Below, piece by piece: positions 14,241 through 56,983 of a stretch of 64,000 bases of DNA. A program made the translations under genes and the position numbers. The notes under the pieces are model-generated. The model was given only the letters and a program-made list of their open reading frames with translations, was not told the DNA's origin and did not search any database. Numbering within the stretch: the stretch's first letter is position 1; each line of letters begins with the position of its first letter. The stretch spans positions 2,676,144-2,740,143 of the forward strand of contig CAWKOR010000001.1 in NCBI GenBank assembly GCA_963851325.1, read 5' to 3'. This stretch comes from an uncultured delta proteobacterium. Lineage in GTDB: Bacteria; Desulfobacterota; Binatia; Binatales; Binataceae.

Positions 14241-14421
14241 TATGAGTGGCTTTGTTTTTGCCGATCCTGGTCCCCAATGAGTGGGTTTGTTTTCGTGCCA
14301 CCGGCAAGGCAAGGAACATCGTCACAGCCGAGTTCGCCGGCTTCGATTGATAGTGGTTTTGGCCAACCCACCAGACGGAAAGTCCTTTATTTCCAAGGAT
14401 TAAGTGGGTTTGTTTTTGCAC
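14241..14421. repeat. intergenic repeat locus A: three copies of motif ~AGTGGGTTTGTTTTTGC (reverse orientation of CAAAAACAAACCCACT)
   Basis: Copies at about 14241-14262, 14276-14299 and 14399-14421. Same family as loci at 35301-35474 and 56644-56983. Followed by GC hairpin GCGGCGCCCGttttCGGGCGCCGC at about 14457-14480. Confidence 0.7.
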
Positions 14422-14629
14422 AATCACGCAGCCTCACCTGACTCCTCAAATAGCTTGCGGCGCCCGTTTTCGGGCGCCGCGATTCCGATCCTACCATAAT
14501 GTGACTCTTCGTGCATTCTCGCCTGAAAATACCGATCGTCGTGCATATCTGCGCTGAGTGACGCAACCACAGTGTCCGTGATCGAGCACTTCAAGTCCTT
14601 GCTGGGATTCTGAGCATCCGTGACAGCGG

Positions 14630-15271
14630 TCACGATGCTTTCCGCATCTGATGCGGGAGCGCTTCCCGCGCGATGACCGCGACCGCGGCGCGGATCGCAT
14701 CTTCCATCATCGCGACCGGCATGCTCGGGACGGCAGGATCGCGCGCCGACTGCGCCGCATCGAAGGGCAGGTGGATGAACCCGGCAGGGAAGTTCGGGCG
14801 CCGCCGGGTCGCATGCAGCGCGGCATACATCGCGGCGTTGCATGCGTATGCGCCCGCGCTCAGCGAAATCGACGCCGGAACCTTCCGCCGTTCCAGCGCC
14901 TTAAGAATCGGTCCCATCGGTAGTCGCGAGAAGTAAGCATCCGGAGCGTTGTTAATCACCGGATGCCCCCCGAAGCGGGCGTCGAGATGGCCGGCCTTGC
15001 GCTGCTCGAACAGATTGATCGCGATGCGTTCGAGCGACAGCGCGGGCCGGCCGCGCGCCTGGCCGAGCCCCAGGATCGCCCGCGGTCGATAGCGCACGAA
15101 CGCCGCCTCGACGCGTCGCACCGCCGCGAGGCAGTTGACCGGCAAGCGCACCGATTTGACTTGCAGGCCGCCGATGACGTCCCCGTCGAGGTTGCGCGCG
15201 ACCTCCCACGACGGGTTGATGCGCTCGCCGCCGAACGGCGCGAATCCGGTCACCACGATGATGGGCGGCAT
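14630..15271 (-). CDS. pcp: pyroglutamyl-peptidase I (pyrrolidone-carboxylate peptidase)
   Basis: N-terminal VTGFAPFGGERINPS and catalytic Cys region SAGAYACN match Pcp. Confidence 0.8.
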   Translation of the reverse strand: MPPIIVVTGFAPFGGERINPSWEVARNLDGDVIGGLQVKSVRLPVNCLAAVRRVEAAFVRYRPRAILGLGQARGRPALSLERIAINLFEQRKAGHLDARFGGHPVINNAPDAYFSRLPMGPILKALERRKVPASISLSAGAYACNAAMYAALHATRRRPNFPAGFIHLPFDAAQSARDPAVPSMPVAMMEDAIRAAVAVIAREALPHQMRKAS

Positions 15272-15292
15272 GGCGCGGCTACTTCTTGCGGC

Positions 15293-16111
15293 CTACTTTT
15301 TGCGCCGATGATGCTCGATAGGCACGTCGTCGCGATTGCCCCATTCGCCCCACGATCCCCAATAGTTGCGCACCTTCGAAAAGCCCGCGAGCCGGAGCGC
15401 GTAGTATGCGTGCGCCGCCCGGTAGCCACCCTGGCAATAGGGAATCACTTCGGCGTCGGGACTAAGTCCCAACTGCGCGAATTGCGCACGCAGCTCGTCG
15501 GGCGATTTGAATGCACCCGCCTGGTTCTGGCTCGCGGTCCAATCGAGGTGGATGGCGCCGGGAATCGCGCCGCCATGCTTGGCGCGGACCCGCTCGCTGT
15601 AGTATTCGGCGTCACTGCGTACATCGAAGATCTGCACCTCGCGATTGGCGATGCGGTTGATGATGTACCCGAGGGAAGCGGCCGCTTCGTCTGCCGGTGT
15701 CCCGTCGTACTCGACCGGCGCGAACGGCTTCGCCTCAGTGGCAAGCTTTTCGTTTGCGAACGCTTTCAGTCCGCCGTCGAGGATTTTCGCGTTGCCATGG
15801 CCCATCCATTCGAGCGCCCACGCGACTCGCGTCGCGCGCATGCCGGAATCATTCTCGTAGCATACGACCGTATGCCTGGTGGTGATTCCGAGCGCCGAAA
15901 AAATCCAGCGCAACTGATCCTTGAACTCGTTGACGCCGCGCTCGCTGCTGTCGCTGTAGTGAAATGGAAACGGATCGAAATGGCGCGCGCCCGCGAGATG
16001 GCCCGCCCAGAAATCTTTCGCCGCGCGGGTGTCGACGATCACCAGATTCGCGTCGTTCCGATGCTCAATGAGCCATCGCGCATCGACCAGGAAATCAGCT
16101 TTTGATGCCAT
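15293..16111 (-). CDS. rhodanese-domain sulfurtransferase (two rhodanese domains; thiosulfate/3-mercaptopyruvate sulfurtransferase-like)
   Basis: Tandem rhodanese domains with active-site Cys loop CQGGYRAAHA. Confidence 0.85.
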   Translation of the reverse strand: MASKADFLVDARWLIEHRNDANLVIVDTRAAKDFWAGHLAGARHFDPFPFHYSDSSERGVNEFKDQLRWIFSALGITTRHTVVCYENDSGMRATRVAWALEWMGHGNAKILDGGLKAFANEKLATEAKPFAPVEYDGTPADEAAASLGYIINRIANREVQIFDVRSDAEYYSERVRAKHGGAIPGAIHLDWTASQNQAGAFKSPDELRAQFAQLGLSPDAEVIPYCQGGYRAAHAYYALRLAGFSKVRNYWGSWGEWGNRDDVPIEHHRRKK

Positions 16112-16125
16112 CGTCCAAACCCTCT

Positions 16126-17206
16126 CTAAACCTTCGCTGCGCTGCCGACCGCTTCGCTAATAGAGCGAAATCCCTCGCGCTGGAGCAAGGTCGCCAGCTC
16201 CTTTTTCATCGACGCGATCAGCCCCGGTCCTTCGTAAATCAGCCCGGTGTAAAGCTCGATGAGGTTCGCGCCGGCCTTGATATGGCCAAACGCGTCGTCA
16301 GCATTCGTGATGCCGCCCACCCCGATTATCGGAAGCTTGCCTTGCGGTGCGACGATATACACTCGCGATGCGATTGCGCGCGAGATCTCGCAGTGGAGGT
16401 CCGCTCAGTCCGCCGGCTTCAGTGGATGCGACGCCGACCTCGCCGCGTTTCAAGGTGGTGTTGCAAACGACCATGCCGTCGAGCCGCAGCCCCATCGCGG
16501 TATCGCATATCGCGTCCAGCGTCGCGTCGTCGAGGTCCGGCGCGACTTTGAGCAGCATCACCGAACGCCCGCCGGTAGGGTTTTGCTTCATCGCGGCAAA
16601 CAACTCGCGCATCTTATCGGGCGATTGCCAGTTTCGCAGCCCGGGGGTGTTCGGCGAGCTGACGTTGATGACAATGAAATCCGCCAGCGGGGCCAGGCGC
16701 GTCATCAACGCGCCATAGTCATCAGCCACCTGCTCCACCGGCGTGTCTTTATTCGGCCCGAAGTTGAGCCCGAGCCGAATCCGCGTGCCGCCGCGCCGAA
16801 CATTCTTAGCGCGCTCAATCCGGGCTGCGACGGCCTCCATCCCCTCGCTGGGAAAGCCGAGTCGATTGATCAACGCGCGATGCTCCGGGAGCCGGAACAC
16901 TCGCGGCTTCGGATTGCCCGGCTGCGGCCGCGGCGTGATGGTTCCCAACTCGGCGAAGCCGAACCCGAGTGATTGCCACGCGCCGATCGCGATCGCATCT
17001 TTATCCATTCCCGCGGCGAGTCCGACCGGATTGGAAAACTCCATGCTCCACAGCGAGGATCGCAACTCCGGCGGATCCGGGGCGACCGGAAGAGGCGGCA
17101 TTATCGAGAGCATCGAGAGCGCCAGGTGATGCGCGATCTCGGCGTCGAGGCCGAACAGGATGGGCCGGAGCAAACCTCGATAGAGCGGACCCGGAATCAG
17201 AGACAT
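16126..17206 (-). CDS. pyrD: dihydroorotate dehydrogenase (quinone), class 2; apparent frameshift near 16350-16362
   Basis: Track ORFs 16298..17350 (N-terminal and catalytic regions) and 16126..16362 (C-terminal [11 protein letters not shown]...[12 protein letters not shown]) are consecutive PyrD segments in different frames. Start is the internal Met [13 protein letters not shown] at 17206. Confidence 0.85.
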
Positions 17207-17349
17207 CGAGGGCAATCTAGGCGGCTGCGGTGAGCGACGCAATTTGGCCATCCACAGTCTGTTCGAAAACAAAACGCTGCTCGCGTGCGTGGCGCGGCGT
17301 CGTGGCATAATATTCGTACCCCGAAGTGGACGTTGTGGAGGGGTGAGCA

Positions 17350-18198
17350 TTGAGTAACGAGGCGAAAGTCCAGGTCAAGCTGATCGATTTCGCGAAGTCG
17401 CCGCTGGAAAAACTCTACGCGGCGTTTCGCACCTGCTATTCCTCGGAAACCCCGATCGAGATCTGGGAAAAGATCGAAGCCGAGAAAATCTCGCGCGAAA
17501 AAATCCGCGAGTTCATCGGCGAGCGCCTCAAGACCGGCCACGCCTCGCCGCTCGAGCAGGTGGTATTCTGGTTCGCGATCGCCAACGTCTCGCGCTCGCT
17601 CTCGCATCAGTTCGTCCGCCATCGCATCGGCATCAGCTTCGAGCAACAGAGCCAGCGCTATGTGAAATTCAAACAGGACAAGCTCGCGTTCGTGATGCCT
17701 GAATCGTGGGAGCGCGCCGGGATGCGCGAGGAGTTCGAGGGCCTGCTCGACAAAACCTCCGACCTGTATGCGCGCGCGTTGAAAGCGGGCGTCCCGGCCG
17801 AGGACGCGCGCTTCGTCCTCCCCAATGCCGCGCCGACCAACTTCCAGGTGATGGTGAACTTCGCCGAGATGCTGCACATCTGCGACTTGCGGCTGTGCGT
17901 GCGCGCGCAGTGGGAAATTCGTCGGATGGTCGCCTTGATGCGCGCCGAGATCAAACGCGTGCTGCCCGAGATCGCGGTGTTCCTGCAGCCCAAGTGCGGC
18001 GAGAATCGGATGGGCTACTGCGACGAATCGCTCGACGAATGGGCCAAGTGCCCGCTCGGCAAGGTACGTCCGCATAAGGCGGCGATCTTCGAGATGTACG
18101 AGAAACATGGGTCGCGCAAATCGAAGCCGCTGACCGAGACGGAATTCCGCGTCGTCGAAGAAGTGGAAACCCTCGATCAGCATCCGACGAAGAAGTGA
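17350..18198 (+). CDS. thyX: FAD-dependent thymidylate synthase
   Basis: ThyX motif RHRIGISFEQQSQRY (RHRx7S). TTG start preceded by GGAGGGG. Confidence 0.9.
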   Translation: MSNEAKVQVKLIDFAKSPLEKLYAAFRTCYSSETPIEIWEKIEAEKISREKIREFIGERLKTGHASPLEQVVFWFAIANVSRSLSHQFVRHRIGISFEQQSQRYVKFKQDKLAFVMPESWERAGMREEFEGLLDKTSDLYARALKAGVPAEDARFVLPNAAPTNFQVMVNFAEMLHICDLRLCVRAQWEIRRMVALMRAEIKRVLPEIAVFLQPKCGENRMGYCDESLDEWAKCPLGKVRPHKAAIFEMYEKHGSRKSKPLTETEFRVVEEVETLDQHPTKK

Positions 18199-18581
18199 AC
18201 TCTCATCTGGTAGCGGCCATCGAGGAGTTTAATCGCGGCGAATACTTCAAGGCCGCGGAACTGTTCGAGAACGCCGCCGCCGAGTCCGATGATGCCGGCA
18301 AGACCTTCATCATCACGCTCAATCGCATCGCGGCCGGATTGCATCTTCGCTTCGAACGCGGCGGGCGTCAGGCTGCCATCAACCTGTTCTCGCAGGCGAT
18401 GCTCACACTCGATCAGATGAAGCCCAGCCGCGAGGGTGTCGATATCGAGACGCTGATCACCGAACTGCACGCCTACACCGAGGAGCTTCGCGCGACGCCC
18501 AAGGATGAGGGCGACGGGATGAAGCATCGCGCGCGCCTGTTCCTCGAGCGTCGCCGCGTCCCCAAAATCAAACCCACCTGA
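18195..18581 (+). CDS. DUF309 domain-containing protein
   Basis: FNRGEYFKAAELFE...HxxLE pattern of DUF309. GTG start overlaps the thyX stop. Confidence 0.5.
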   Translation: MNSHLVAAIEEFNRGEYFKAAELFENAAAESDDAGKTFIITLNRIAAGLHLRFERGGRQAAINLFSQAMLTLDQMKPSREGVDIETLITELHAYTEELRATPKDEGDGMKHRARLFLERRRVPKIKPT

Positions 18582-18590
18582 ACCGCGGCA

Positions 18591-19160
18591 ATGGCTACTC
18601 CATTGGCAACGTTGCAGGCTTCAATGCGTGGGTGCTGCGACTGCGCGGCGCTGGTCAAGTGCCGCTCCCGCGTGGTGCCCGGTGACGGCGCCGTGCCGGC
18701 TCAGGTGATGTTTATCGGCATCGCGCCGGGGCGCTTTGGCGGTGATGTCACCGGCATTCCATTTTCCGGCGATCGCTCGGGCATCCTGCTCCGCAGCATG
18801 ATTGCGCGCGCCAATATCGAGGATGCATTCGTCACCAACCTGGTGCGATGCAATCCGCGCGATGAAGGCGGGCGCAATCGTGATCCCTACGCCGACGAAA
18901 TCGCGAATTGTCGCAAACATCTCGATGCTGAGATCGCGATGGTGCGGCCTCGCGTCATCGTTTGCCTCGGCGCGATGGCGTGGCGTCAGCTCGCCGGGCG
19001 CGACGCGGCATTCGATCCGGCGCATCCGAAAATCCGCGAACACAACAACGCAATGCTGTATCCGATGTACCATCCGGGTTACGTGATTCGCGGCGCCTAT
19101 GATGCCCGCAGTTACCGCCGCGACTTTCGCCGCTTACGCCATCACCTGAACCCGCGTTGA
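18591..19160 (+). CDS. uracil-DNA glycosylase superfamily protein (family 4/5-like)
   Basis: GIAPG... motif region, N-terminal Cys cluster (CCDCAALVKC) and C-terminal HPGY... typical of Fe-S UDGs. Confidence 0.75.
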   Translation: MATPLATLQASMRGCCDCAALVKCRSRVVPGDGAVPAQVMFIGIAPGRFGGDVTGIPFSGDRSGILLRSMIARANIEDAFVTNLVRCNPRDEGGRNRDPYADEIANCRKHLDAEIAMVRPRVIVCLGAMAWRQLAGRDAAFDPAHPKIREHNNAMLYPMYHPGYVIRGAYDARSYRRDFRRLRHHLNPR

Positions 19161-20068
19161 CTTGGCCCGATGCGCTCGCGATGCTCGTCGCAGTGGATAT
19201 CACCCAGGAAGCTGTTCGCGCGGGACTGCGCGGCTCAAACTACATTACCAACGAGCGCGTGGAGACCGCGATTTTTCTCGCACTCGCGCTCGAAAAGCCG
19301 CTGCTCATCGAAGGCCCCGCCGGCTCCGGCAAAACCGAAGTCGCCAAGGTGATCGCCGAGATGCTCGGGACCGAATTGATTCGGCTCCAGTGCTACGAGG
19401 GACTGGATGAGGCGCGCGCACTTTACGAATGGAACTACCAGAAGCAACTGCTGCGGCTGCAGGCCGACCAGCATCAAGGCGCGCGATGGGAGGAAATCTC
19501 CGAGCATCTGTTCTCGCGCGAGTACCTGCTGGAGCGGCCGCTGCTGAAGGCGATCTCGGCACCGCGCAAGGTGGTGCTGCTGATCGACGAGATCGACAAG
19601 GCCGACGAAGAGTTCGAGGCCTTTCTGCTCGAGCTGCTGTCCGATTTTCAGGTCAGCGTTCCCGAATTGGGAACGATTCGCGCGGTCGAAATTCCAGTGG
19701 TCGTGCTGACCTCGAATCGGGCCCGCGAATTATCGGAAGCGCTGCGGCGGCGATGCCTGCATTTATTCATTGACTTTCCGGGCGCGGAACAGGAGCGTCG
19801 CATCGTGCAACTGAAGGTGCCGGGACTCGACGAGCGCCTCGCAACCGAGGCCGCGCGATTCGTCGGTGCGGTGCGCAAGCAGGGCCTCAAAAAGCCACCC
19901 TCGATCGCGGAGACGCTGGATTGGGCGCGGGCGCTGCAGCGGCTCGGCATCAAGGAATTAAACAGCGACGCGATCAAAGCCACGCTCGGCGTTTTGCTCA
20001 AGCACGAGGACGATCGTGCCAAGGTCGAGAGCAAAGCCGGCGCGCTTTCAGGCCGCGGCGCGAGGTAG
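19157..20068 (+). CDS. MoxR-like AAA+ ATPase (CoxD-like)
   Basis: Walker A GPAGSGKT and Walker B LLIDEIDKA. Start overlaps the UDG stop. Confidence 0.85.
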   Translation: MTWPDALAMLVAVDITQEAVRAGLRGSNYITNERVETAIFLALALEKPLLIEGPAGSGKTEVAKVIAEMLGTELIRLQCYEGLDEARALYEWNYQKQLLRLQADQHQGARWEEISEHLFSREYLLERPLLKAISAPRKVVLLIDEIDKADEEFEAFLLELLSDFQVSVPELGTIRAVEIPVVVLTSNRARELSEALRRRCLHLFIDFPGAEQERRIVQLKVPGLDERLATEAARFVGAVRKQGLKKPPSIAETLDWARALQRLGIKELNSDAIKATLGVLLKHEDDRAKVESKAGALSGRGAR

Positions 20069-20082
20069 CCTTTCGGATCGCG

Positions 20083-21318
20083 ATGACCACGCTTCGGGAC
20101 GAGTTGCTGCGCTTCGTCAGTCAGCTTCGTGGCGCGGGAGTTCGAGTATCGATATCCGAGACGCTCGACGCGATGAATGCGATCTCGGCGGCGGGACTCG
20201 AACGCGTTCCGATGCGCGAGGCGCTCGCAGCCACGCTCATCAAGGACGAAGACGACCGCCAGATTTTCGATGAGCTGTTTGCCGCATTCTTCGGAGGGAA
20301 TCGCCATCCCACCGATGACGGCTGGAGAAAGCCCGGAGCTGAATCATCCGCGGCGCCCGGATCGGGGCGAGTCGAAAGCGAATCGATTCGCTCGGTTCGC
20401 AAGGACAAGAAACCCGCGCAGTCTGCCGTCCGCGAAAAATCCGAATCGCGCGACGAATCGGATACTCAAGCCAAGGCGGACTCCGAGGAACCTCGCGAGC
20501 GCGAAGACTCTGAGGCAGAAGAGTCTTACGCGGACGAAGCGAGCGAGGAAGCAAGCGAAGCCGGCAAGGAGGCCGAGAGCAGGGCGTCCAGCGGGCACGA
20601 TGCGCGACGGCACAAGATCGAGCGCACGCCGTTCGAGCGCTATTCCGACCTGGAATTCGACGAGGCTCGCGACGCGCTCGCGCCGATTGCCCGACGCTTC
20701 CGGGCGCGCCTTTCCCGGCGGCTGCGAATGGCGAAGAGTGGCCGCCTCGACTTCCGGCGCACCATTCGCGCCTCGATTCAACGCGGCGGTGCCTTGTCGG
20801 ACCTGCGGTTCCGGGCGCGACGCCCGCGGCATATCGACCTCGTGATTCTCGCGGATATTTCGGGTTCGGTACGCTATTCCTCGACCCTGATGCTCGAGCT
20901 GATCGCGGGAGCATCGAGCTTTTTCCGGCGGGTGCGAAGCTTTGTTTTCATCGATCGGCTCGCGGAGGCCGAGTTCGAACAAAAGCACCTGATCATGACG
21001 CCTCCCCTCGATCTCTACGCGCGTTCGGACTTCGGCCGCGTCCTCAATGAGCTATGGGAGCGACGTGGCGAGCTGCTCAATCGCGCGACGGTGTTGGTGG
21101 TGATGGGCGACGGGCGTAACAATCGGCGCCCGCCGCGTGCAGATTTGCTTCGCGAGATGGGCCGCCTGTGCCGCGCCGTCTTCTGGCTGATACCTGAAGA
21201 GCGCGAGCGATGGGGCACCGGTGACAGCGCGATCTTTCAATATGCGCGGGAGGTCTCCGCGCTGGTGCCGTCGCGCGATTTACGCGAACTGGAAGCTGCG
21301 CTCATCAAAGTCGGCTAA
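20083..21318 (+). CDS. VWA domain-containing protein (CoxE-like) with acidic low-complexity linker
   Basis: CoxE-like N-terminus and a C-terminal VWA with MIDAS-like DxSGS (ADISGSV). Central Glu/Asp/Ser-rich linker. Start taken at the internal Met MTTLRDELL. Confidence 0.75.
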   Translation: MTTLRDELLRFVSQLRGAGVRVSISETLDAMNAISAAGLERVPMREALAATLIKDEDDRQIFDELFAAFFGGNRHPTDDGWRKPGAESSAAPGSGRVESESIRSVRKDKKPAQSAVREKSESRDESDTQAKADSEEPREREDSEAEESYADEASEEASEAGKEAESRASSGHDARRHKIERTPFERYSDLEFDEARDALAPIARRFRARLSRRLRMAKSGRLDFRRTIRASIQRGGALSDLRFRARRPRHIDLVILADISGSVRYSSTLMLELIAGASSFFRRVRSFVFIDRLAEAEFEQKHLIMTPPLDLYARSDFGRVLNELWERRGELLNRATVLVVMGDGRNNRRPPRADLLREMGRLCRAVFWLIPEERERWGTGDSAIFQYAREVSALVPSRDLRELEAALIKVG

Positions 21319-21329
21319 CCTCGGCGGTC

Positions 21330-22850: not shown

Positions 22851-22853
22851 CGG

Positions 22854-24020: not shown

Positions 24021-24066
24021 CTCGGTCCAGCTTGCGATTCTAGTCGCGCGACGCGGGTTAGGATAG

Positions 24067-24711: not shown

Positions 24712-24719
24712 GAAGTCTT

Positions 24720-25880: not shown

Positions 25881-25990
25881 CCGCGCCTCATCCGGCGAAA
25901 CAATTTCGGTTTGATTCTGTCACGAGATCGTGCGGGCTTCGAGGTCATTTCTGAACGCTGTCACCTTAAAAAAGGGCGAAATCCGGGTAG

Positions 25991-26127: not shown

Positions 26128-26220
26128 TCTCCCGGAAAAACGCCGGGGCATCGGTGCGACGTTAGATAATCTTGTAATCACTTGTCGGCCGCCCAGGCGA
26201 CCACTACAGCGGCGACCTCG

Positions 26221-27678: not shown

Positions 27679-27696
27679 AAATCTCCCTCCGTTGGT

Positions 27697-35300: not shown

Positions 35301-35474
35301 GAAATTACCAAACGAACCCACCGAGGGGACGGCATCGGCGAGCGAAAGGTGAAAAACAAACCCATTAAGGGAGCTCGGAACGATCGTCATGCTGAGGTCG
35401 GAATTACATAAACGAACCCACCGAAGGAACTCTGTCGGCATAGGGAAAATTGAAAAAACAAACCCATTAAATCG
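35301..35474. repeat. intergenic repeat locus B: alternating motif types ATTAC(C/A)(A/T)AAACGAACCCACCGA (x2) and AAAAACAAACCCATTAA (x2) in two ~100-bp tandem units
   Basis: Copies at about 35301-35328, 35349-35371, 35401-35427 and 35450-35474. Same family as loci A and C. In a convergent intergenic region. Confidence 0.7.
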
Positions 35475-35660
35475 AGGAAAATAAAGGGTTTTCTTCCAGA
35501 CAATCGGTCGCGCAATCCCCGATCATGTCGTGCTGTTCTCCCCACTCTCATCCGCCCGTCACGGTTCTCGCATCGAAGCCAGCGCGAGAACCGCGCCAAG
35601 CGCCTTCTCTCGCTAGCGAGCGCAGCGACTCATTGGAGTATCGACACAATGTCGGTAAGC

Positions 35661-46210: not shown

Positions 46211-46261
46211 AAGGCCTCCCCGCTTGAAATGATCGAGTAGTCAGATTTCACGTCAGGTGGC

Positions 46262-47548: not shown

Positions 47549-47776
47549 GACTGCGCGCCTCCTCTAGAAACGAGGTTTCAGGTTCGTGACCGAAGCAGTG
47601 TACCTGCTTGGGCAACGACTCGGCTATCAGCAATCTCGATGCCGTCGGGCCAGCGCGGAAACGCCGACAGCGGGCAGGGAACTCAATTCAAAATAGCAGA
47701 AGTCTCGTGCATGGTCGCGGCTGCACGCAGCAGGCGCGCGGCATAAGTCAGCCGAGGAGCCGTAATGCGATGGAGC

Positions 47777-49656: not shown

Positions 49657-49787
49657 AAAACTCGCCAGAGAGTTTTATGACATACCGTACTGGATGTTGC
49701 AAACAGGCGAGAATGTCTACTTAAAGTCTAATAACGCGGAGGAGGTCGGATGGCTAGTCCCGCTTCGCCAGATATCCGACCAAACCG

Positions 49788-50591
49788 CTATTTTCCTTGG
49801 AAATTCGGACGCCGCTTCTCCAAAAATGCCTTGACCCCCTCCCGATAGTCCTCGCTGTCGAAGCATTGCGCGACCAGCGCGGCTACCGTCTTGCCGTTGC
49901 GATGTTCCGGGTCCTTGAGCGATTCGCGAATCGCAGCCTTGGCCGCCAGCATCGTCAGCGGCGCGTTGGTCGCCATCTTGAGCGCATACTCGCGAACCGC
50001 TTCCTCCAACTGCGCGCTGTCGACCATCCGATTGACCAGCCCCATCGCGAATGCCTCTTCGGTATCGAACAGCCGCGCCGACAGCAGGATGTCGCGCGCA
50101 TTGGCGGGGCCGACCACATTGATCAGCGCGTTTACGCCATCGAGCGGGTAGGCGAGGCCGAGCCGGGCGGCGGGAACGCCGAAGCGGGTGCCTCGCGCGG
50201 CGATCCGGATGTCGCATGATAACCCGACCTGCAGACCGCCTCCGATGCACACCCCCGACAGCATTCCGATCACAGGCTTGGGTGACTCGGTCATCGCGGC
50301 GATCGCGTTGTTAGGGGCGTCGCGATAGGCGCGCGCCTGCTCTGCATTCGCACGCATCGCGGGAAATTCCGAAATATCGGCCCCCGCGATGAACGCTTCG
50401 GGAGTCGCGCCGCGCATGATGATCACGCGCACCGCGGGGTCGGCGTCGAGTTCCTTCATACCCTCGGCGATGCGCAGCCAACTCCGCAGGTTGAGCGCGT
50501 TGCGGACCTCGGGGCGATTGAGGGTCAGCCATCCGAGCGGCGGCTCATGGGTTACAATCAGGGGATCGCGCGTGCTGTGATGTTCGCTCAC
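49788..50591 (-). CDS. enoyl-CoA hydratase/isomerase family protein
   Basis: Crotonase fold (AFIAGADISEF..., GGGLQVGLSCDIRIAA). Confidence 0.85.
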   Translation of the reverse strand: MSEHHSTRDPLIVTHEPPLGWLTLNRPEVRNALNLRSWLRIAEGMKELDADPAVRVIIMRGATPEAFIAGADISEFPAMRANAEQARAYRDAPNNAIAAMTESPKPVIGMLSGVCIGGGLQVGLSCDIRIAARGTRFGVPAARLGLAYPLDGVNALINVVGPANARDILLSARLFDTEEAFAMGLVNRMVDSAQLEEAVREYALKMATNAPLTMLAAKAAIRESLKDPEHRNGKTVAALVAQCFDSEDYREGVKAFLEKRRPNFQGK

Positions 50592-50690
50592 GGAAATGTC
50601 CTCGGGTTAGACTGTCGCCATGCTGCGCATCACCCGCGCCGAATGGCAAGGGTCGGGGGCGTCTGAAGGCGCCTCCAAAAGCAGGCTTCG

Positions 50691-51275
50691 GTGAACATGA
50701 AAGATGAACTGACCATCCTGCTGATCCGGCACGCGGAATCAGCGCCGCCCAAAGATGGTGTCGGCGCCGAGCGCGAGCGCAATCGGCCGCTGACCGAGCG
50801 CGGTATCCGCGATGCGGAGGTCCTCGCCGAGACGCTGGCCGCGATCAAACCCGACCGCGTTTACTCGAGTCCCTATCGGCGCTCGATTCAGACCGTAGCT
50901 CCCATCGCCGCGCGCAATTCAATGGAGGTCGAGCTCATCGAGGACCTGCGCGAGCGGCTGCTTTCTCCCGCTGCGCTGCCCGACTTCCGCGACCATCTGC
51001 GACGATGCTGGCTTGATTTCGACTACGCTCCCCTCGGCGGCGAAAGCAGCGCGATCGCGCAGGCGCGGGTGAGGTCGGTGTTCGACGATTTGCGGCGACG
51101 CCATCGCGAGGGCCTGCTGGTGGTCGGGAGTCACGGGAATCTGATCAGCCTCGCGCTGCACGCGATCGAGCCTACGGTGAACTACGATTTCTGGAATGCG
51201 ATTCCGACGCCGGCGGTTTATCGCATCGCGTTCCGCGATGGCCGTGTCTGTGAATTGAGTGGTCCGGGATTTTAG
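50691..51275 (+). CDS. histidine phosphatase family protein (phosphoglycerate-mutase-like)
   Basis: RHAES catalytic motif (LIRHAESA) and C-terminal GSHGN. Confidence 0.8.
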   Translation: MNMKDELTILLIRHAESAPPKDGVGAERERNRPLTERGIRDAEVLAETLAAIKPDRVYSSPYRRSIQTVAPIAARNSMEVELIEDLRERLLSPAALPDFRDHLRRCWLDFDYAPLGGESSAIAQARVRSVFDDLRRRHREGLLVVGSHGNLISLALHAIEPTVNYDFWNAIPTPAVYRIAFRDGRVCELSGPGF

Positions 51276-51356
51276 CTTGTGTGATCGAGGATGAGCAGCA
51301 TCACGGGATGCATCATCCGGACTACGGCTATTGATTGAGATGACAATCTGAAAATG

Positions 51357-51387
51357 AAAAGGGCGGCCATCGCGGCCGCCCTTTTTT
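51357..51387. terminator. bidirectional rho-independent terminator (GGGCGGCC-atcgc-GGCCGCCC flanked by A-run and T6)
   Basis: Perfect 8-bp GC stem with TTTTTT 3' on the + strand and an A-rich 5' side (T-run on the minus strand), between convergent genes ending at 51275 and 51410. Confidence 0.8.
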
Positions 51388-51409
51388 GGCAACATCTGGT
51401 TGCAGAACA

Positions 51410-51850
51410 CTACTCCGAACCGACCTGGTAAAAAGTCACCCGCCATTCGCCGTTCCGTTGCTTCTTGACGAGGACCGTCTCGGTTTCCGCCTTCGAGTGT
51501 TCGAATGAACTGTCGTAATGGACCCGAACGTACTCGCCGGGCGGCTCGTTCTCCGGATTCTTCTCATAGGTCTGGTCCTTCAAGGAACGGCTGAGCTCCT
51601 TACCCAGCGCGGTGCGCGTCAGGGTCATCTTCTTTACGAACTTGCGCCGGTACATGGCAGCAGGTTTCATCTGCTCATCGGCTACTTCCCACGCTTCACT
51701 GTATTTGCCCTGGTCTATCATCTCGAGCCAGTGGGTTGCCGCTGCCGCGCCCTGTTTTGCCGATTCGCTGGGAGAGGTGCATCCGGCCAGGGTCGTCAGC
51801 AGCAGCGCGGTCAGCGCGATTGCCGCGAATCGTCGGACTCCCATCGTCAT
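51410..51850 (-). CDS. hypothetical lipoprotein (DUF4019-like?)
   Basis: Lipobox LLTTLAGCTS. No confident domain. Confidence 0.5.
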   Translation of the reverse strand: MTMGVRRFAAIALTALLLTTLAGCTSPSESAKQGAAAATHWLEMIDQGKYSEAWEVADEQMKPAAMYRRKFVKKMTLTRTALGKELSRSLKDQTYEKNPENEPPGEYVRVHYDSSFEHSKAETETVLVKKQRNGEWRVTFYQVGSE

Positions 51851-52704
51851 CGTGCGATCACCTCATTGCCCATTTTCTCGAGTCCGCGGGTCAGGCCCTC
51901 CTGATCGAACGCGGGAGGCGGCACTACCACCCGCGTAATGCCGATGTCCTCAAACGCCTTGAGCACCTCGGGCTTCGCGCGGCCCATGCATGACAACTCG
52001 ATATGGGTCGCGGCGCGGCCGGCCTTCTGCGCCTCGGTGGCCATCATCGCGAATAGTTCTTTGAGCTTGGGAATTTCACCGAGCGCGGGAAAGAAGCCAT
52101 CGCCATAGCGTCCCGCACGCTTCGCAGCGGCCGGCGAATGCCCACCCACGATGATCGGGATGCCGCTCTTGTTGAATGGCTTGGGGTACATCTTCACGTT
52201 ATCGAAGCTGTAATGCTTACCGTGAAAAGTCGCGGCGCCATCGCTCCAGAGTGCGCGCATCGCTTTGATCGCCTCATCGGTCATCGCGCCACGCTGGTGA
52301 AAATCCAGCCCCAGCGCCTGGAACTCTTCCGCGAGCCATCCGCTCCCGATGCCGAGCAGCAAGCGCCCCTTGGATAGCTGATCGATGGTGGCGGTTTCCT
52401 TCGCGACATAGATCGGGTGGCGCTGCGGAAGAATCAGGATGCCGGTCGCGAGTTTCAGGTTTTTGGTCAGCGCCGCGGCGAATGACAGCGGCTGCAATGG
52501 ATCGGGGATCGAAACGTCCTCACCGCCGGGAATTTTGCCGGTCGACGAGTATGGATACGGAGATTTGTAGTCGTGCGGAATGACGACATGCTCGACGGTC
52601 CAGATCGATTCGATGCCAACCTTCTCGGCGGTGGTTACGAGATGGGCGAAGAGATCGGGATTGGTGAAAGGTCCGGAATTGGCGAACATCAGACCGATTT
52701 TCAT
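51847..52704 (-). CDS. LLM class (luciferase-like) F420/flavin-dependent oxidoreductase
   Basis: Luciferase-like TIM barrel. Start at the internal Met MKIGLMF, 7 nt after GAGG. The track ORF extends further upstream. Confidence 0.8.
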   Translation of the reverse strand: MKIGLMFANSGPFTNPDLFAHLVTTAEKVGIESIWTVEHVVIPHDYKSPYPYSSTGKIPGGEDVSIPDPLQPLSFAAALTKNLKLATGILILPQRHPIYVAKETATIDQLSKGRLLLGIGSGWLAEEFQALGLDFHQRGAMTDEAIKAMRALWSDGAATFHGKHYSFDNVKMYPKPFNKSGIPIIVGGHSPAAAKRAGRYGDGFFPALGEIPKLKELFAMMATEAQKAGRAATHIELSCMGRAKPEVLKAFEDIGITRVVVPPPAFDQEGLTRGLEKMGNEVIAR

Positions 52705-52927
52705 AGCTGCCTCGCAAGTAGTGGATTCGCGACAATTTAGCGCGGGCACGCAAATGAATGAAACGCATTTCGCCAAGTCGAGGAGAGTGCTTTTGTTAGG
52801 CTGAGGATCTTGGCGTGCCGAAGAACAGAAAGCTGACGCGTGTCGTAATTGATGACGATGCTTTGATTGAAGAGGCAATGCGCCAGCCTTGAGCATCGGG
52901 CGATGCCTGCGCTACTTAGGGATCACT

Positions 52928-53803
52928 ATGGAACTCGGAAAAGTTGGATTGTGGTTTTTCCTCGATGCGATGACTGCGCCGCAAAGCGCGGAGTTCGCGC
53001 AAAAGGTCGAAAAACTCGGCTACCAAACCCTCTGGATTCCCGAGGCGGTCGGCCGCGAACCATTTCCCCATGCGGCTTATCTGCTCGACAAGACCAGCCG
53101 CCTCAACATCGCCACCGGCATCGCCAATATTTATGGACGCGACCCGATTACGATGTCGGCCGCTTCCAAGACGGTGGCGGAGCTCTCCGGCGGACGCTTT
53201 CTGCTTGGAATCGGCGTAAGTCACAAGCCGCTGGTCAGCAATCTGCGCGGGCACAGCTATGACAAGCCCTACTCCTACATGAAGGAGTATCTGCCCAAGA
53301 TGAAGAGTGCCCTCTATCAGGCGCCCGCGCCCAAGGAGCCGGTGCCGGTGGTGCTGGCCGCGCTGCATCCCAAAATGCTCGCGCTCTGCGCCGCCGAGAC
53401 ACAGGGGACGCATACCTACTTCGTGCCGCCGGAGCATACCGCCAAGGTCCGCGCGCAAATCGGTCCGAAGCCGTGGATCTGCGTCGAGCAGAAGGTCATC
53501 CTCGACACCGACGCCAGCAAGGCTCGCACCGCCGCGCGCCACTTCATGAAGACCTACGTGCCGCGGCTGCCCAACTACACCAACAACCTCAAGAACCTGG
53601 GGTGGAAGGACGAGGAGTTCGAGAACGGATGCAGCGATCGGCTGGTCGATGCGATCGTAGCGTGGGGCACCGAGACCCAAATCAACGATCGCATCCAGGC
53701 GCATTTCAAAGCGGGCGCCACCCACGTCTGCATCCAGCCACTGCGCACCGACATGGCGAACTTGCCTGATGAACGTGCGATGGAAGCATTGGCGCCGAAA
53801 TAA
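52928..53803 (+). CDS. LLM class (luciferase-like) F420/flavin-dependent oxidoreductase
   Basis: Luciferase-like TIM barrel (MELGKVGLWFFLDAMT...). Start at the internal Met. Confidence 0.8.
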   Translation: MELGKVGLWFFLDAMTAPQSAEFAQKVEKLGYQTLWIPEAVGREPFPHAAYLLDKTSRLNIATGIANIYGRDPITMSAASKTVAELSGGRFLLGIGVSHKPLVSNLRGHSYDKPYSYMKEYLPKMKSALYQAPAPKEPVPVVLAALHPKMLALCAAETQGTHTYFVPPEHTAKVRAQIGPKPWICVEQKVILDTDASKARTAARHFMKTYVPRLPNYTNNLKNLGWKDEEFENGCSDRLVDAIVAWGTETQINDRIQAHFKAGATHVCIQPLRTDMANLPDERAMEALAPK

Positions 53804-53904
53804 GCTCCTACCGTTTGGAAAATCGTAAATTTTGCGAAAGTCGACCGCGCTCCGATAACGGAGCGCGGTCTGCTAGGATCGGCGCTTCGTTTGGGGCCGT
53901 AGCT

Positions 53905-54366
53905 ATGCCACTCGCATCGAAATCACTCCACATTGGAAGGACACTGGGTATCGGCGCATCGTTGGTGCTCGCGGTTGCCATGGCGGGATGCTCTGCCGTC
54001 CGCGAGAAAGATGCTGAGGATGCCGAGGCTGCTGCCGCGCGCTCACAGGCATCGGCGGAGCGCGCGGAACAAGCAGCTGATAAGGCGCTCGAATCTTCCG
54101 CAGCCGCGATGAAAGCCGCGGACCATGCGGCCGCCGCGGTCAAGGAAGCGACCAAGGAAATGGATCGCGTCTCGGCGCACCTCGAGCAATTGCTGAAGGA
54201 GCGCGAGGCGGAGGAGGCCGAGGACGCGGCGGAGGAGGCCAAGCCGAAGCCTCATCATCATAAGACCGCCGCGGTCGCGAACAATTCATCGGCGGAGGAC
54301 AAATCGGCGAATATTACGCGCGCAAGCAACCCCTCGCCGGCCGCAACTGCCTCGCCGGCGCGGTAG
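53905..54366 (+). CDS. hypothetical lipoprotein with Ala/Glu-rich coiled-coil region
   Basis: Signal/lipobox LAVAMAGCSA, then an Ala/Glu-rich helical low-complexity region and a His-rich patch (KPHHHKT). Confidence 0.45.
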   Translation: MPLASKSLHIGRTLGIGASLVLAVAMAGCSAVREKDAEDAEAAAARSQASAERAEQAADKALESSAAAMKAADHAAAAVKEATKEMDRVSAHLEQLLKEREAEEAEDAAEEAKPKPHHHKTAAVANNSSAEDKSANITRASNPSPAATASPAR

Positions 54367-54399
54367 CGCGGCCAAGCTCAACAACCCGAGGTAGAGCCT

Positions 54400-55455
54400 A
54401 TGCCTGCCAGCTCGAAATTTTCGCATCGCCAGAGCGAAGAAGACCTCACTCCCGAGGAACTCGAGGCTCGCCGCCGCGCGGCCGAGGTCCGCGGTGAGTT
54501 GCTCGCGCCCAAAACCCGCCGCCACGCATGGCTCAACATTGCGGGTCCACTGGGCGCCGTGGCGATCGCGATCATGCTTGCGGCGTTCTACAAAAATCCC
54601 ATCGGCGTGCTGCGCTGGGTGCAATCCACCAGCCTCGGCTGGTCGGGCGTCACCAAGGCCGAAGTCGGTCTCGACGAAGGGTTGATGACCTACTACATCA
54701 ACGGCGGCTATCCAAACATGGATCCCGTCATCATGATCCATGGTCTCGGGCCCAATGCCGCGCTGGTATGGCGCGACGTGATGGCGCCGATCGGCGCGGG
54801 TCACTACAAGGTGATGGCGCCCAACCTGTATGGGTTCGCGGATTCCGAGCACCGGCAGGTCGATCATTCGATCGCATACCAGGCAGCCGCGATCGGCAAG
54901 TTCATCGACCAGATGCAAATCGACAAGATCAATCTGATCGGATGGGACATCGGCGCCGACGTCGCGCTCTACTATGCGGTGGATCATCCCGACAAGGTGG
55001 AGAGATTGATCCTGGTCTCGGGTGGTCTGTTCGGCGAGGCCGCTGCCAAGAAGCTGCGCCAGGATTTGTTGCCGACTTCGATCGAGGCAATGCAGCAGCA
55101 GGCGAAAGACAGCTTCTTCGATCTGCCCACGATGCCGGGCTTCATCTACGAACGCATGATGGAACAGCTCTCGGGCGACTTGCAGGCGGAAACCGAGATG
55201 CTCAATTCGATTCCCCGCGACGAAGGCCACATCCGTTCGCGGCTGGGGCAAATTTTCAACCTGCTTACGGTCATTACCTGGGGCGGCAAGGACCCGTATT
55301 TCGGCGCGCACCAGGGCGAGGCGATTCACGGAGCGCTGCCCGGGTCGGCGACGATCGTGTTCAAGACCTCGGGCCATTACCCGCAACTCGAGCATCCGGA
55401 AGAGTTCACCGACTCGATCCTGTTTGTGTTCAAGCAGACTGAGGGTGGGCAGTGA
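54400..55455 (+). CDS. alpha/beta hydrolase with Asp nucleophile (epoxide hydrolase / haloalkane dehalogenase-like), N-terminal TM anchor
   Basis: HGLGPN oxyanion motif and nucleophile elbow GWDIG (Asp in place of Ser). TM segment LNIAGPLGAVAIAIMLAAF. Confidence 0.7.
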   Translation: MPASSKFSHRQSEEDLTPEELEARRRAAEVRGELLAPKTRRHAWLNIAGPLGAVAIAIMLAAFYKNPIGVLRWVQSTSLGWSGVTKAEVGLDEGLMTYYINGGYPNMDPVIMIHGLGPNAALVWRDVMAPIGAGHYKVMAPNLYGFADSEHRQVDHSIAYQAAAIGKFIDQMQIDKINLIGWDIGADVALYYAVDHPDKVERLILVSGGLFGEAAAKKLRQDLLPTSIEAMQQQAKDSFFDLPTMPGFIYERMMEQLSGDLQAETEMLNSIPRDEGHIRSRLGQIFNLLTVITWGGKDPYFGAHQGEAIHGALPGSATIVFKTSGHYPQLEHPEEFTDSILFVFKQTEGGQ

Positions 55456-55509
55456 GCTTGCCATTGCGGCGGACGTTTTGAGATAAGCGATCCACAACGA
55501 GGAGCATCA

Positions 55510-56151
55510 ATGAAACTTTATCAAAGCAATCTCTCCAACTACGCAACCAAGACGCGAATTGTGATCTACGAGAAGGGGCTCAAGGTCGATTTCGTTGATC
55601 CGCCGGGCGGGCTCCATTCGGCGGAGTATCAGAAGATCAATCCACTGGACAAAATCCCCTGCCTCGATGTCGATGGGCTCATCATTCCGGAGTCCGAAAT
55701 CATCAACGAGTATCTCGAAGAGAAATATCCCGAGAAACCGCTGCTGCCGAAATCACCGGAAGCGCGCGCCAAGGTTCGCCTCTTCGGCCGCTTCCACGAT
55801 CTCTACCTCGAGCCGCCGCTGCGCGCGCTGTTCGGGCAAATGAATCCCAAGGCGCGCGATGACAAAGTCGTCAACGAGAAGCTGACTGAGGTAAACAAGC
55901 GCCTCGACGAGCTGGAGAAGATGCTCGGTGAGAGCGGCTTCGCGGCGGGCGCCGATTTTACTCTGGCCGATTGCTCGGTCGCGCCGACGATTTTCTTCTG
56001 CAACGCGCTGCTGCCCTCATTCGGCGCCAAACCGCCGTTGGAGGGGCGTCCCAAGATCGCGTCATGGTGGACTCACGTGCAGACGCGCCCGTCAGTGAAG
56101 AAGGGCCTCGGCGAGATGCAGGAAGCGCTCGCGGCAATGAACAGGAAATAG
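55510..56151 (+). CDS. glutathione S-transferase
   Basis: N-terminal thioredoxin-like GST domain (MKLYQSNLSNYATKTRIVIYEKGL...) and a C-terminal alpha domain. GAGGAG RBS. Confidence 0.85.
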   Translation: MKLYQSNLSNYATKTRIVIYEKGLKVDFVDPPGGLHSAEYQKINPLDKIPCLDVDGLIIPESEIINEYLEEKYPEKPLLPKSPEARAKVRLFGRFHDLYLEPPLRALFGQMNPKARDDKVVNEKLTEVNKRLDELEKMLGESGFAAGADFTLADCSVAPTIFFCNALLPSFGAKPPLEGRPKIASWWTHVQTRPSVKKGLGEMQEALAAMNRK

Positions 56152-56195
56152 ATCCAAAACACGCCAGGCCGCAAAATTCGGCCGGGTGGAGCTAA

Positions 56196-56224
56196 GCGGC
56201 ATCCGAGAGGGTGCCGCTTTTTTT
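56196..56224 (+). terminator. rho-independent terminator (GCGGCA-tccgagagggt-TGCCGC followed by T7)
   Basis: 6-bp stem plus TTTTTTT, 45 nt downstream of the GST stop. Confidence 0.7.
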
Positions 56225-56591
56225 CGAGTTGTCGCTCGCAAGCTCCCTGATCTAATTTCGCGCGCGAAAGAAAATGTCCCAGGCATCCCAACACGATTGG
56301 AGGGAACCGGCGTTCGTGGAAGCTCAAACCAGGTACCGACGGTGCCGGAGTGCGCGGGCGGGTTTGCCAACCTCGCGGTCGCGAAGACCCGCATCCTGCA
56401 AAGCAGCCGCCTCAACATCAACAGCCTGTCGAAAGGAAAACATCTGTTCCAGTGCTGCATCCATCCGTGGATGCGGATGGAGGTAGACGTGAAATAGCCT
56501 GCTGGTTCGGCTGTGAGCGATGGGACCCCGAAATCGGCGATAGGATGGCGAAAGTAGCACCACCAGTCACAACCTGATATCATCAAGAGAA

Positions 56592-56625
56592 CGGCGCCCG
56601 CAGGGGTGCCGTTCCCTTTTCGGAG
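56592..56625 (+). terminator. terminator-like hairpin (AACGGCGCC-cgcagg-GGTGCCGTT followed by CCCTTTTC)
   Basis: 9-bp stem with one wobble and a short T-run, at the end of an ~400-nt noncoding stretch. Confidence 0.4.
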
Positions 56626-56643
56626 CGGAGGAATCGCGCGGAT

Positions 56644-56983
56644 GCGAAATTACATAAACGAACCCACCGCGAGCATCGCGAGCGGTGGTCCTGAGGCTCT
56701 GCGAAGGACCTCGAATTGCACCATGCCGAATGCTCAAATCGCAAAAACAAACCCACGGCGAACATCGTGAGCAGTGGTCCTGAGGCTCTGCGAAGGACCT
56801 CGAATTGCACCATGCCGAATGCTCAAATCGCAAAAACAAACCCACTGCGAACATCGTGAGCAGTGGTCCTGAGCGTCCTCGCGAAGGACCTCAGATGGCA
56901 CGGTGACGATCGCGAAATGCATAAACGAACCCACCGCCCAGCTCGGTGGACATTCGAAGTGCAAAAACAAACCCACTGCAAGG
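56644..56983. repeat. intergenic repeat locus C: ~89-bp tandem array (about 3.5 units) carrying motifs GCGAAAT(T/G)(A/C)CATAAACGAACCCACCGC and GCAAAAACAAACCCAC(G/T)GC, each followed by a hairpin whose 3' arm is complementary to CCAC(C/T)GC
   Basis: Units start at about 56644, 56740, 56829 and 56912/56959. Units 2 and 3 are near-identical over 89 bp. Recurrent 6-bp hairpin GGTCCT-N12-AGGACC. Same motif family as loci A and B. A further 8-bp palindrome GGCGATAT...ATATCGCC at 57009-57033. Confidence 0.75.

Follow-up and report, generated by a model that had tools for sequence, protein, structure and literature searches.

The closest described analogue in logic of the repeats considered here is the repetitive extragenic palindromic (REP) sequence, organized into bacterial interspersed mosaic elements (BIMEs) and accompanied by a REP-associated tyrosine transposase (RAYT). 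In BIMEs, clustered REP copies alternate in orientation (PMC2817692). We have analysed a 64,000-nt stretch from a member of the Binataceae (Binatota), referred to below as the window, in which three intergenic loci (A, B and C) carry arrays of a short motif with the core AAAC(A/G)AACCCA. The alternating orientation, the HUH transposase and the family-wide palindrome of the REP/BIME and RAYT system either fail or are not general here. Together with a family of conserved hypothetical proteins that we call X, we rate the arrays as a dispersed repeat paired with a cognate gene.

The key fact, which lies beyond a reading of the window from its sequence alone, is that the motif is tightly linked to the 3′ end of genes of the uncharacterised family X. 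The three loci are best explained as orphans, copies without a gene of an undescribed but widespread repeat module that normally resides at the 3′ end of X. In our favoured reading, to which we would assign a probability of about 40%, the core word would be a recognition site for X on RNA or DNA and the arrays would be multi-site platforms that disperse and amplify as modules.

Motif arrays in the window

The initial annotation of the window had proposed at least 12 copies of two related motifs, more than chance would give, in three intergenic loci that all lie between convergent genes, and each part of this proposal held. A search of the whole window with AAACRAACCCAC, allowing up to one mismatch, gave 13 matches compared with 0.26 expected, and none of 100 dinucleotide shuffles reached 13; the 11-mer AAAC(A/G)AACCCA identifies the same 13 sites (0.95 expected). 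Twelve of these lie within the three loci, giving 12 copies and three arrays per 64 kb, and the core is exact in 11 of the 12. The remaining match, AATCAAACCCAC at 18566–18577, has one mismatch, is isolated at the end of an open reading frame (ORF; 18195–18581) and is probably due to chance. Locus A has three copies, all on the − strand, while loci B and C have four and five copies, respectively, all on the + strand (Table 1); each of the three contains at least two same-strand AAAC(A/G)AACCCA cores within 300 nt, which is how we define the family. The flanking genes are convergent pairs of unrelated housekeeping genes: a cyclase-family protein and a pyroglutamyl peptidase at locus A, UPF0093 and a short-chain dehydrogenase (SDR) at locus B, and a glutathione S-transferase (GST) with a small ORF opposite a beta-lactamase-fold protein at locus C. 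The GST, the SDR and the peptidase fall into clusters, at 90% identity or more, with proteins named Candidatus Binataceae.

Both motif types of the initial annotation were recovered, with the consensus (A)ATTAC(A/C)(T)AAACGAACCCACCG for type 1 and (T)GCAAAAACAAACCCA(C/T)T for type 2. Their reported alternation at roughly constant spacing is correct for locus B, in which it is strict (spacings of 44, 56 and 46), but not for locus C, in which the order is 1-2-2-1-2 and the spacings are 89, 89, 89 and 42. This order and the 89-nt spacings arise because locus C contains three tandem units of 89–91 nt that are 84–91% identical. The units are not peptide genes, since their period is not a multiple of three and stops occur in every frame; the three frames are also inconsistent, and peptide-coding units were ruled out for the window. 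A repeat search found no inverted repeat pair in any of the three loci, and for lack of terminal inverted repeats the arrays do not resemble miniature inverted-repeat transposable elements (MITEs), contrary to the earlier suggestion.

The initial annotation could not place the repeats in any recognised class, and our searches agree. Rfam 15 gave no match in the window at the gathering threshold and only chance-level matches in locus C at E values up to 10, while 18 array-bearing loci matched tRNAs only; known RNA families therefore fit neither. Relics of tRNA or tmRNA were ruled out, as ARAGORN finds none. A reverse-strand sigma-54 promoter, TGGGTTTGTTTTTGCA, was also rejected, the GG-N10-GC spacing being confined to Binatia type 2 copies and replaced by N9 in other lineages (read by eye).

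The motif across phyla

A single scan covering 185,579 species genomes, which looked for pairs of motif copies 20–50 nt apart, returned at least 119 loci. The repeat family is real but not specific to one genome: the same 11-mer forms same-strand arrays in at least eight phyla with G+C contents of 35–70%. The loci come from Planctomycetota (Phycisphaerae, Pirellulales and Isosphaeraceae, including complete Tundrisphaera genomes), Acidobacteriota (Bryobacterales and Terriglobia) and Verrucomicrobiota, with Zixibacteria, Chloroflexota, Armatimonadota, metagenome-assembled genomes of Binataceae/'delta' type and Alpha- and Gammaproteobacteria also among the matches listed. In a logo drawn from 371 exact instances, only about 16 nt are conserved, (g)C(a/g)AAAC(G>A)AACCCA(a)(t)(t), flanked by variable spacers, and this 11–16-nt core is the sole part conserved across phyla.

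The arrays contain 2–17 copies, which lie on one strand in nearly all of those fetched. The initial annotation had likened the window clusters to REP elements, but all copies of an array point in the same direction, unlike the REP clusters of BIMEs. Spacing ranges from 10–11 nt in head-to-tail satellites (L032 and L012) through a 23-nt period (L028) to more than 100 nt. Satellites with a 10–11-nt period (AAACGAACCCAAAACGAACCCA...) are found at L032 770–830, at L012 around 7330–7420 on the − strand and in L011, and the 23-nt satellite consists of CGACGAAACGAACCCAATTGCCG repeated seven times at L028 2240–2400; these periods correspond to about one or two helical turns per copy. According to crude gene calls aided by the G+C content of third codon positions, arrays occur in all kinds of gap, 61 upstream of a co-directional gene compared with 33 facing a convergent gene, and the convergent arrangement seen in the window is a minority class of 14 cases.

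Several observations concern particular groups. In Phycisphaerae/Sedimentisphaerales the first motif is TTTTTATGCAAAACAAACCCAATTT (L124 5775–5900, L126 4621–4776 and L032 673–940; also L078, L050 and L101), the ATG of which is often in frame with a 13-codon block, MN[IVL]T...T[KR]xYEN, starting 16–18 nt past the motif. Within this block the Tyr codons vary synonymously and the I/V/L exchanges are conservative, and the source annotation calls a 51-residue ORF there; translation of a mini-ORF in bacteria of the Planctomycetota–Verrucomicrobiota–Chlamydiota (PVC) group is uncertain, as the frame is broken in L094, L113 and L032. The Sedimentisphaerales contig L124 also has, upstream of its X gene, a 1.3-kb non-coding stretch (3640–5000) full of another repeat, (T)TGTCCTGAGCGAAGTCGAA(T/G)GGATC, and of simple-sequence runs. 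The tandem motif pattern occurs in 29 stretches of IMG/VR. The dense matches among them were judged to be an unrelated low-complexity coincidence: UViG_2757320477 (L229–L256; three contigs of 72–83 kb, G+C about 30%, labelled viral) carries AT-rich satellites with 9-, 18- and 27-nt periods that merely contain AAACAAACCCA, with up to 66 motif matches per 6.7 kb on both strands.

Full-text literature searches with the motif strings and for Binatia repeats returned primers or unrelated papers only. Neither the motif nor X is described in the curated libraries or in the searchable literature, a statement that holds for those collections.

Protein family X and its link to the motif

X emerged from an all-against-all BLAST comparison of the ORFs flanking the arrays, in which it was the only recurrent family; generic ABC ATPases and response regulators came next in frequency. 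An X profile was then searched over the 119 motif-selected loci and matched in 10 of them. In nine of these ten the X gene shares the strand of the array and directly precedes it on the 5′ side, the first motif lying at the stop codon or within the final part of the ORF, and L124 and L126 have the same layout; the exception is L019, in which motif copies lie upstream of the X start.

To remove the ascertainment by motif, 80 metagenome loci were fetched by X alone, 64 of which extend at least 150 nt past the stop codon. A forward motif with at most one mismatch is found between −250 and +700 nt of the stop in 37 of the 64, where chance would give about 0.015 per locus. Most positions are either +8 to +45 nt from the stop or about 80–200 nt inside the ORF. 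The density of forward-strand motifs is 1.19 per kb at the X stop versus 0.089 per kb elsewhere, and forward copies outnumber reverse copies 49:12. Plasmids of two cultured bacteria, Planctomyces sp. SH-PL62 and Sulfitobacter sp. OXR-159, show the link as well. On pPL62-1 of the former (L222 3001–5769) the X homologue, 516 residues as annotated, has motif-like copies at 4029 and 4108 inside the ORF; beyond it come 1.2 kb of short CCTTGG/CCCTGG-type repeats and, after these, a ParA gene. In L155 two copies, one reversed and one forward, adjoin each other head to head as a near-palindrome.

Members of X have about 190 residues in PVC bacteria and 265–320 in a Binatia-like group. What they share across phyla is mainly the basic N-terminal signature ANRxNAxxSTGPRTxxGKxxSxxNAxKHG, together with an RYExRxE block further along the protein. 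The family is large, with 33,028 clusters at 50% identity (profile search, E up to 0.001) and 2942 clusters at 90% identity from a single query. Searches of Pfam with 12 diverse members, of NCBIfam, of PADLOC and of PDB sequences gave no match, and a PDB sequence search with the Arg-rich tail described below gave nothing. PHROGs returned weak matches only (best E 0.002), to families of unknown function. A phage origin was ruled out, X having neither a match in INPHARED nor a relative in IMG/VR.

In the Binatia-type genes (L083 and L142–L149), which form the X subfamily nearest to the lineage of the window, the ORF stays open through an array of 2–5 units in all eight cases. The proteins end in a conserved Arg-rich tail, NAKTNPLSSMFxGNRHERRRAxALARR, the codons of which show synonymous changes, and the last motif copy encodes KTNP. 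The peptide of phage P22 N that binds the boxB hairpin is GNAKTRRHERRRKLAIER (PMC2700067, PMC11480772), with which the tail has NAKT and RHERRR in common. We treat this resemblance between sequences as a lead and not as a test. The Arg-rich tail and hairpins beside the motif co-occur in the Binatia lineage only.

Hairpins, covariation and strand

A hairpin starting in the motif's own CCA is predicted for C1–C4, A2 and A3. The initial annotation had described a hairpin that uses the motif's 3′ end throughout locus C, and this applies to C1–C4 but not to C5, where it is weak or absent. Copies B1 and B3 have a weaker hairpin that starts just after the CCA, and the remaining copies have a weak hairpin or none. 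A second hairpin, TCCT...AGGA, follows in units C1–C3. Covariation was examined in nine locus C-like units from this lineage, a small sample including some tandem copies, so that the result is supportive rather than conclusive. In the two-hairpin structure 91% of the cells are paired and five of the ten pairs have changed on both sides; the covariation score was reached by none of 500 shuffles, and controls in which the partner was slid were 27–46% paired. Across phyla, the CCC of the motif forms a hairpin arm in 69 of 367 instances, compared with 72–89 (about 83) after shuffling. With no such preference across phyla, the hairpin is a feature of the lineage and not of the family, and the hairpin-structured family first proposed is retained only in the form of compensatory changes in these nine units.

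These structures raise the possibility of an array of small structured RNAs, or of one multi-hairpin non-coding RNA, that would be independent of X and in which the A/C-rich core would act as a seed or a protein-sponge site. Two hairpins per unit with compensatory changes would suit such an RNA, as would a core that is poor in G and U and predicted to be single-stranded on the 5′ side of the hairpins; the multi-copy layout recalls sponges of the CsrB/RsmZ type, and a strong sigma-70-like promoter, TTGACC-N17-TATAAT, can be read by eye ahead of the array in L022. However, no promoter-like site was found in locus C, Rfam gave no match at either threshold, the hairpins are not family-wide, and the motif also occurs within coding sequence and reversed relative to X. 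We consider an X-independent RNA to be very unlikely.

On the opposite strand each unit of loci A, B and C reads as a hairpin followed by GGGTT(T/C)GTTT(T)T (GGGTTTGTTTTTGC), which resembles an intrinsic terminator. Since the motif-strand hairpins are real and the reverse strand is terminator-like, either strand could be functional. As a local by-function, the arrays could serve as tandem intrinsic terminators for the convergent beta-lactamase-fold, SDR and cyclase genes. A terminator scan of the − strand of locus C found three sites compared with 1.4 expected, two of them from motif units and the third outside the array (57048–57029). A Qrr-like terminator alignment and the reverse-strand folds are in agreement with this, and in the three loci the gene facing the reverse strand of the motif has no other obvious terminator. 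Such a role would leave both the nucleotide conservation across phyla and the link to X unexplained, and arrays elsewhere more often precede a co-directional gene than face a convergent one. The absence of hairpin enrichment at the motif across phyla rules out terminators as a general reading, and even as the local explanation they seem to us quite unlikely.

Orphan arrays and their turnover

The window arrays are orphans, because no X is encoded in the window. An X gene would not have fitted there, the gaps being too short and the arrays too near the flanking genes. They are nevertheless related to arrays that are embedded in X. The units of locus C align with X-embedded units of L142, L144, L148 and L083 and share their covarying stems, as in the pair formed by the L144 unit CAAAAACAAACCCATTGCGAGCATCGCGAGCAATGGTCCTGAGCGCTGCGCGAAGGACCTCGAA and window unit C1, ATAAACGAACCCACCGCGAGCATCGCGAGCGGTGGTCCTGAGGCTCTGCGAAGGACCTCGAA; in loci A and B it is the last X unit, AAATGCAAAAACAAACCCATTAAGT, that the type 2 copies match, with an E value of about 10^−3.

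Comparison with relatives that share 90% identity or more with the window in the flanking proteins indicates that the arrays are labile. The contigs L001 and L003, from near-identical strains, contributed nothing further. The gap between the SDR and UPF0093 genes is 13 nt in a relative versus 440 nt in the window, array B being absent. The gap between the peptidase (pcp) and cyclase genes is 141 nt versus 433 nt, and a different REP-like repeat takes the place of array A. Array C is kept in L225, with one 89-nt unit instead of three and with that other repeat inserted. Arrays are therefore gained or lost, and amplified, on short time scales, since A and B are missing and the unit number of C differs in relatives. 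When the empty sites (L134 and L136) were compared, the filled gaps proved to be composite, without a visible duplicated flank. Between the window and L225 the cores, stems and distal hairpin of array C are intact while the spacers have diverged, so that the array cores appear to be constrained.

Turnover of this kind could reflect a non-autonomous mobile repeat, REP/RAYT-like or similar to short and long interspersed nuclear elements (SINE/LINE-like), for which X would be the mobilizing enzyme, the array its recognised end and the orphans transposed or 5′-truncated copies. Besides the empty sites, X genes occur in unrelated contexts and many of them on very short contigs, as expected of multi-copy elements; the orphans have only the 3′ module of X in common, and a conserved single-stranded head followed by a covarying hairpin is REP-like anatomy. 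Against mobility, X has no HUH/Y1, DDE, serine-recombinase or tyrosine-recombinase signature and no Pfam match, and neither terminal inverted repeats in the three loci nor a target-site duplication or clean insertion boundary is visible. Homology between X loci runs from a promoter-like region about 90 nt before the ATG to the stop codon, with no second element end; the spacers between cores are unconserved, in contrast to copies made by recent transposition, and array C has been retained at the orthologous site in L225. On balance we regard a mobile repeat as unlikely.

The same comparison bears on the idea that the arrays are functionless debris, for which the 3′ ends of X genes once present would have decayed and been multiplied by slippage. 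In one of its frames locus C still reads ...GGPEALRRTSNCTMPNAQIAKTNP..., which resembles ...SGPEALRRASNGRMASAKAQKQTH... of the L142 X protein, but that frame is interrupted by stops, and the unit number differs between relatives. Decay is difficult to reconcile with the intact cores and stems between diverged spacers in L225, with cores that are exact in nearly all window copies, and with three separate orphan arrays within 64 kb, each too near its flanking genes to be the remains of an X gene. Debris is in our view highly improbable.

The favoured reading and its weak points

We infer that X recognises the core word, e.g. AAATTACGAAACGAACCCAATT, on single-stranded RNA, which we prefer for the Binatia lineage, or on DNA; RNA is favoured in that lineage because the stems covary and because the X tail is Arg-rich with NAKT and RHERRR as in P22 N. 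Arrays would then be multivalent platforms for an oligomeric, coiled-coil X. Orphan arrays would stem from 3′ modules that were duplicated and dispersed, and from amplification in tandem; they could offer further binding platforms on nearby transcripts or DNA, or serve as decoys. Binding might affect RNA stability, act in termination or antitermination, or help the element to spread. The accessory parts depend on the lineage: Binatia have the hairpins, and PVC bacteria a conserved block that may include a mini-ORF. We prefer recognition by X over the alternatives because it covers most of what was observed: the fixed word, the same-strand clusters, the link to X, the orphans, the turnover and the accessory parts.

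A number of observations weigh against recognition by X. A six-frame hmmsearch of the window with the X profile found no member within the 64 kb, about 90% of the motif-selected arrays have no X inside the fetched 8 kb, and 27 of the 64 X loci have no motif at one mismatch or fewer. The window arrays are placed where no downstream gene could be regulated. The predicted structure of X is all-helical with long helices (pLDDT 66), and Foldseek comparison of the model with PDB folds returned coiled coils only, without a recognisable nucleic-acid-binding fold; with that confidence score and those matches the model is uninformative. Counts of G-U versus A-C in the stems favour neither strand. Finally, in some X subfamilies the motif is reversed inside the ORF (encoding ...IGFVSQ...), about 160 nt before the stop (L155, L161 and L171), and in L164, L165 and L191 it is reversed 180–290 nt upstream of X. 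These reversed copies fit a DNA-level site better than an RNA site, and the former is therefore kept open.

A word that stays the same in eight phyla or more, over a two-fold range of G+C content, must have a conserved reader, and the only conserved partner found is X, with its roughly 33,000 clusters at 50% identity and no description in any curated library. Should X prove to read the word, a function could be assigned to a very large dark family, for which Tundrisphaera, Planctomyces sp. SH-PL62 and Sulfitobacter sp. OXR-159 are available as cultured carriers, and a common class of intergenic repeats, and of assembly breaks, in Planctomycetota, Acidobacteriota, Verrucomicrobiota and Binatota could be explained. 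More broadly, X and the AAACRAACCCA arrays might form an unrecognised cross-phylum protein–nucleic-acid system, in which X would be a new family that binds or processes nucleic acids; this could be either a new class of selfish repeat driven by neither HUH nor DDE enzymes or a new global layer of post-transcriptional or transcriptional control in soil and sediment phyla; we advance this tentatively, as possible but doubtful.

Features of the window

The coordinates of the motif copies and associated structures are listed in Table 1.

Table 1. Motif copies, units and neighbouring hairpins of the three window loci.
Feature	Coordinates	Strand	Details
Copy A1, type 2	14246–14257	−	AAACAAAGCCAC, one mismatch
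Copy A2, type 2	14281–14292	−	Motif CCCA pairs with TGGG 5 nt downstream; short hairpin
Copy A3 and hairpin	14365–14415	−	Motif 14404–14415; arms AACCCAC/GTGGGTT at 14404–14410 and 14365–14371
GC-rich palindrome	14457–14480	none	GCGGCGCCCG-TTTT-CGGGCGCCGC; about 40 nt 5′ of array A on the − strand
Copy B1, type 1	35310–35338	+	Followed by CCGA-N10-TCGG hairpin
Copy B2, type 2	35354–35365	+	AAAAACAAACCCATTAAG; same extension in last unit of Binatia-type X genes
Copy B3, type 1	35410–35438	+	With CCGA-N10-TCGG hairpin
Copy B4, type 2	35456–35467	+	
Hairpin	56589–56623	+	GAACGGCGCCC-GCAG-GGGTGCCGTTC then CCTTTTCGG; just 5′ of array C
Unit C1, 89 nt	56647–56735	+	Type 1 motif 56656–56667; hairpin 1 56664–56688 (CCACCGC/GCGGTGG); hairpin 2 56689–56708 (TCCT/AGGA)
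Unit C2, 89 nt	56736–56824	+	91% identical to C1; type 2 motif 56745–56756; hairpin 1 56753–56777; hairpin 2 56778–56797
Unit C3, about 90 nt	56825–56914	+	Type 2 motif 56834–56845; hairpin 1 56842–56866 (CCACTGC/GCAGTGG); hairpin 2 from 56867
Copy C4, type 1	56923–56949	+	With CCACCG-N7-CGGTGG hairpin
Copy C5 and distal segment	56965–57035	+	Type 2 motif 56965–56976; end hairpin GTGGCGATAT...ATATCGCCAC 57007–57035; segment conserved in orthologous array of L225

The hairpin just 5′ of array C looks like the intrinsic terminator of the upstream + strand gene. A similar GC-rich hairpin, GCGGCGCC...GGCGCCGC, recurs about 35–45 nt 5′ of Binatia/'delta' arrays, in the window at 14457–14480 and 56589–56614 and also in L004, L023 and L024; it may belong to the module rather than being the terminator of the upstream gene.

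A second, unrelated REP-like repeat was also noted. It consists of CCCCACTCTCATCCG, a GC-rich hairpin and then GCGCCA..CCTTCTCTCGCT(A/T)AGCGAGAGAAGG, and has one copy in the window (35540–35640), beside array B. In relatives (L136, around 3650–3770; L225, around 1760–1850) it occupies other convergent gaps, including a position inside the orthologue of array C.

Comparison with known systems

Several familiar repeat systems bear comparison with the arrays. Like the ToxI component of type III toxin–antitoxin systems, the arrays are direct repeats beside the gene of a small protein; ToxI, however, consists of equal-length head-to-tail units upstream of a toxin of the ToxN/AbiE type, whereas here the spacing is irregular, the array lies 3′ of X and PADLOC gives no match. 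CRISPR arrays are near-identical repeats of 23–50 nt with unique spacers of similar length, while the arrays here have 11–16 conserved nucleotides, spacings of 35–123 nt and, in locus C, 89-nt whole-unit duplications. Rho-independent terminators share the hairpin and T-rich tract of the window units on the opposite strand, but they are neither conserved in nucleotide sequence across phyla nor tied to one gene family, and in most lineages here the hairpin is missing. MITEs are likewise small, non-coding and intergenic and vary in presence between close relatives; the arrays differ from them in having no terminal inverted repeats, no visible target-site duplication, no identity over a whole element and no parent insertion sequence (IS) with a known transposase.

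Two RNA-based systems offer closer parallels for the proposed recognition. The CsrB/RsmZ RNAs that bind CsrA also carry many short recognition words with variable spacers and hairpins, and the proposed logic, a multivalent platform for one protein, is the same; the word here has no GGA, the protein belongs to another family, and the arrays, putatively transcribed, often lie inside or right after the protein's own gene. In the phage N/nut system (boxA–boxB), as in the Binatia units, a linear word is followed by a small hairpin, and the partner X ends in an Arg-rich tail with RHERRR as in P22 N. The similarity is limited to this short Arg-rich stretch, X is absent from the phage collections (INPHARED and IMG/VR), and the arrays are multi-copy and often have no downstream gene.

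The REP/BIME and RAYT pairing shares the most features (PMC2817692): short interspersed intergenic repeats that favour convergent gaps, are clustered and fall into related sub-types, a conserved single-stranded head before a stem-loop, and a cognate gene flanked by the repeat with many orphan copies elsewhere. In contrast to BIMEs, whose copies alternate in orientation, the copies of a cluster here point the same way. The conserved part is an 11–16-nt A/C-rich word found across phyla, whereas the REP is a genome-specific palindrome. REP elements number more than 100 copies per genome; the density here is 12 copies in three arrays over 64 kb of a 4.34-Mb contig. A palindromic unit comparable to REP is present as a stem-loop in loci C and A, while the hairpins of locus B begin after the CCA, and it is not family-wide; hairpins occur in some lineages only. 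X is not an HUH/Y1 (IS200/IS605-like) transposase and has no Pfam, NCBIfam or PDB match, and the repeat is confined to the 3′ side of the gene or to its C-terminal coding sequence. Should X prove to read the word, it would become clear whether a pairing of repeat and partner gene in the style of REP and RAYT has arisen with another type of protein.

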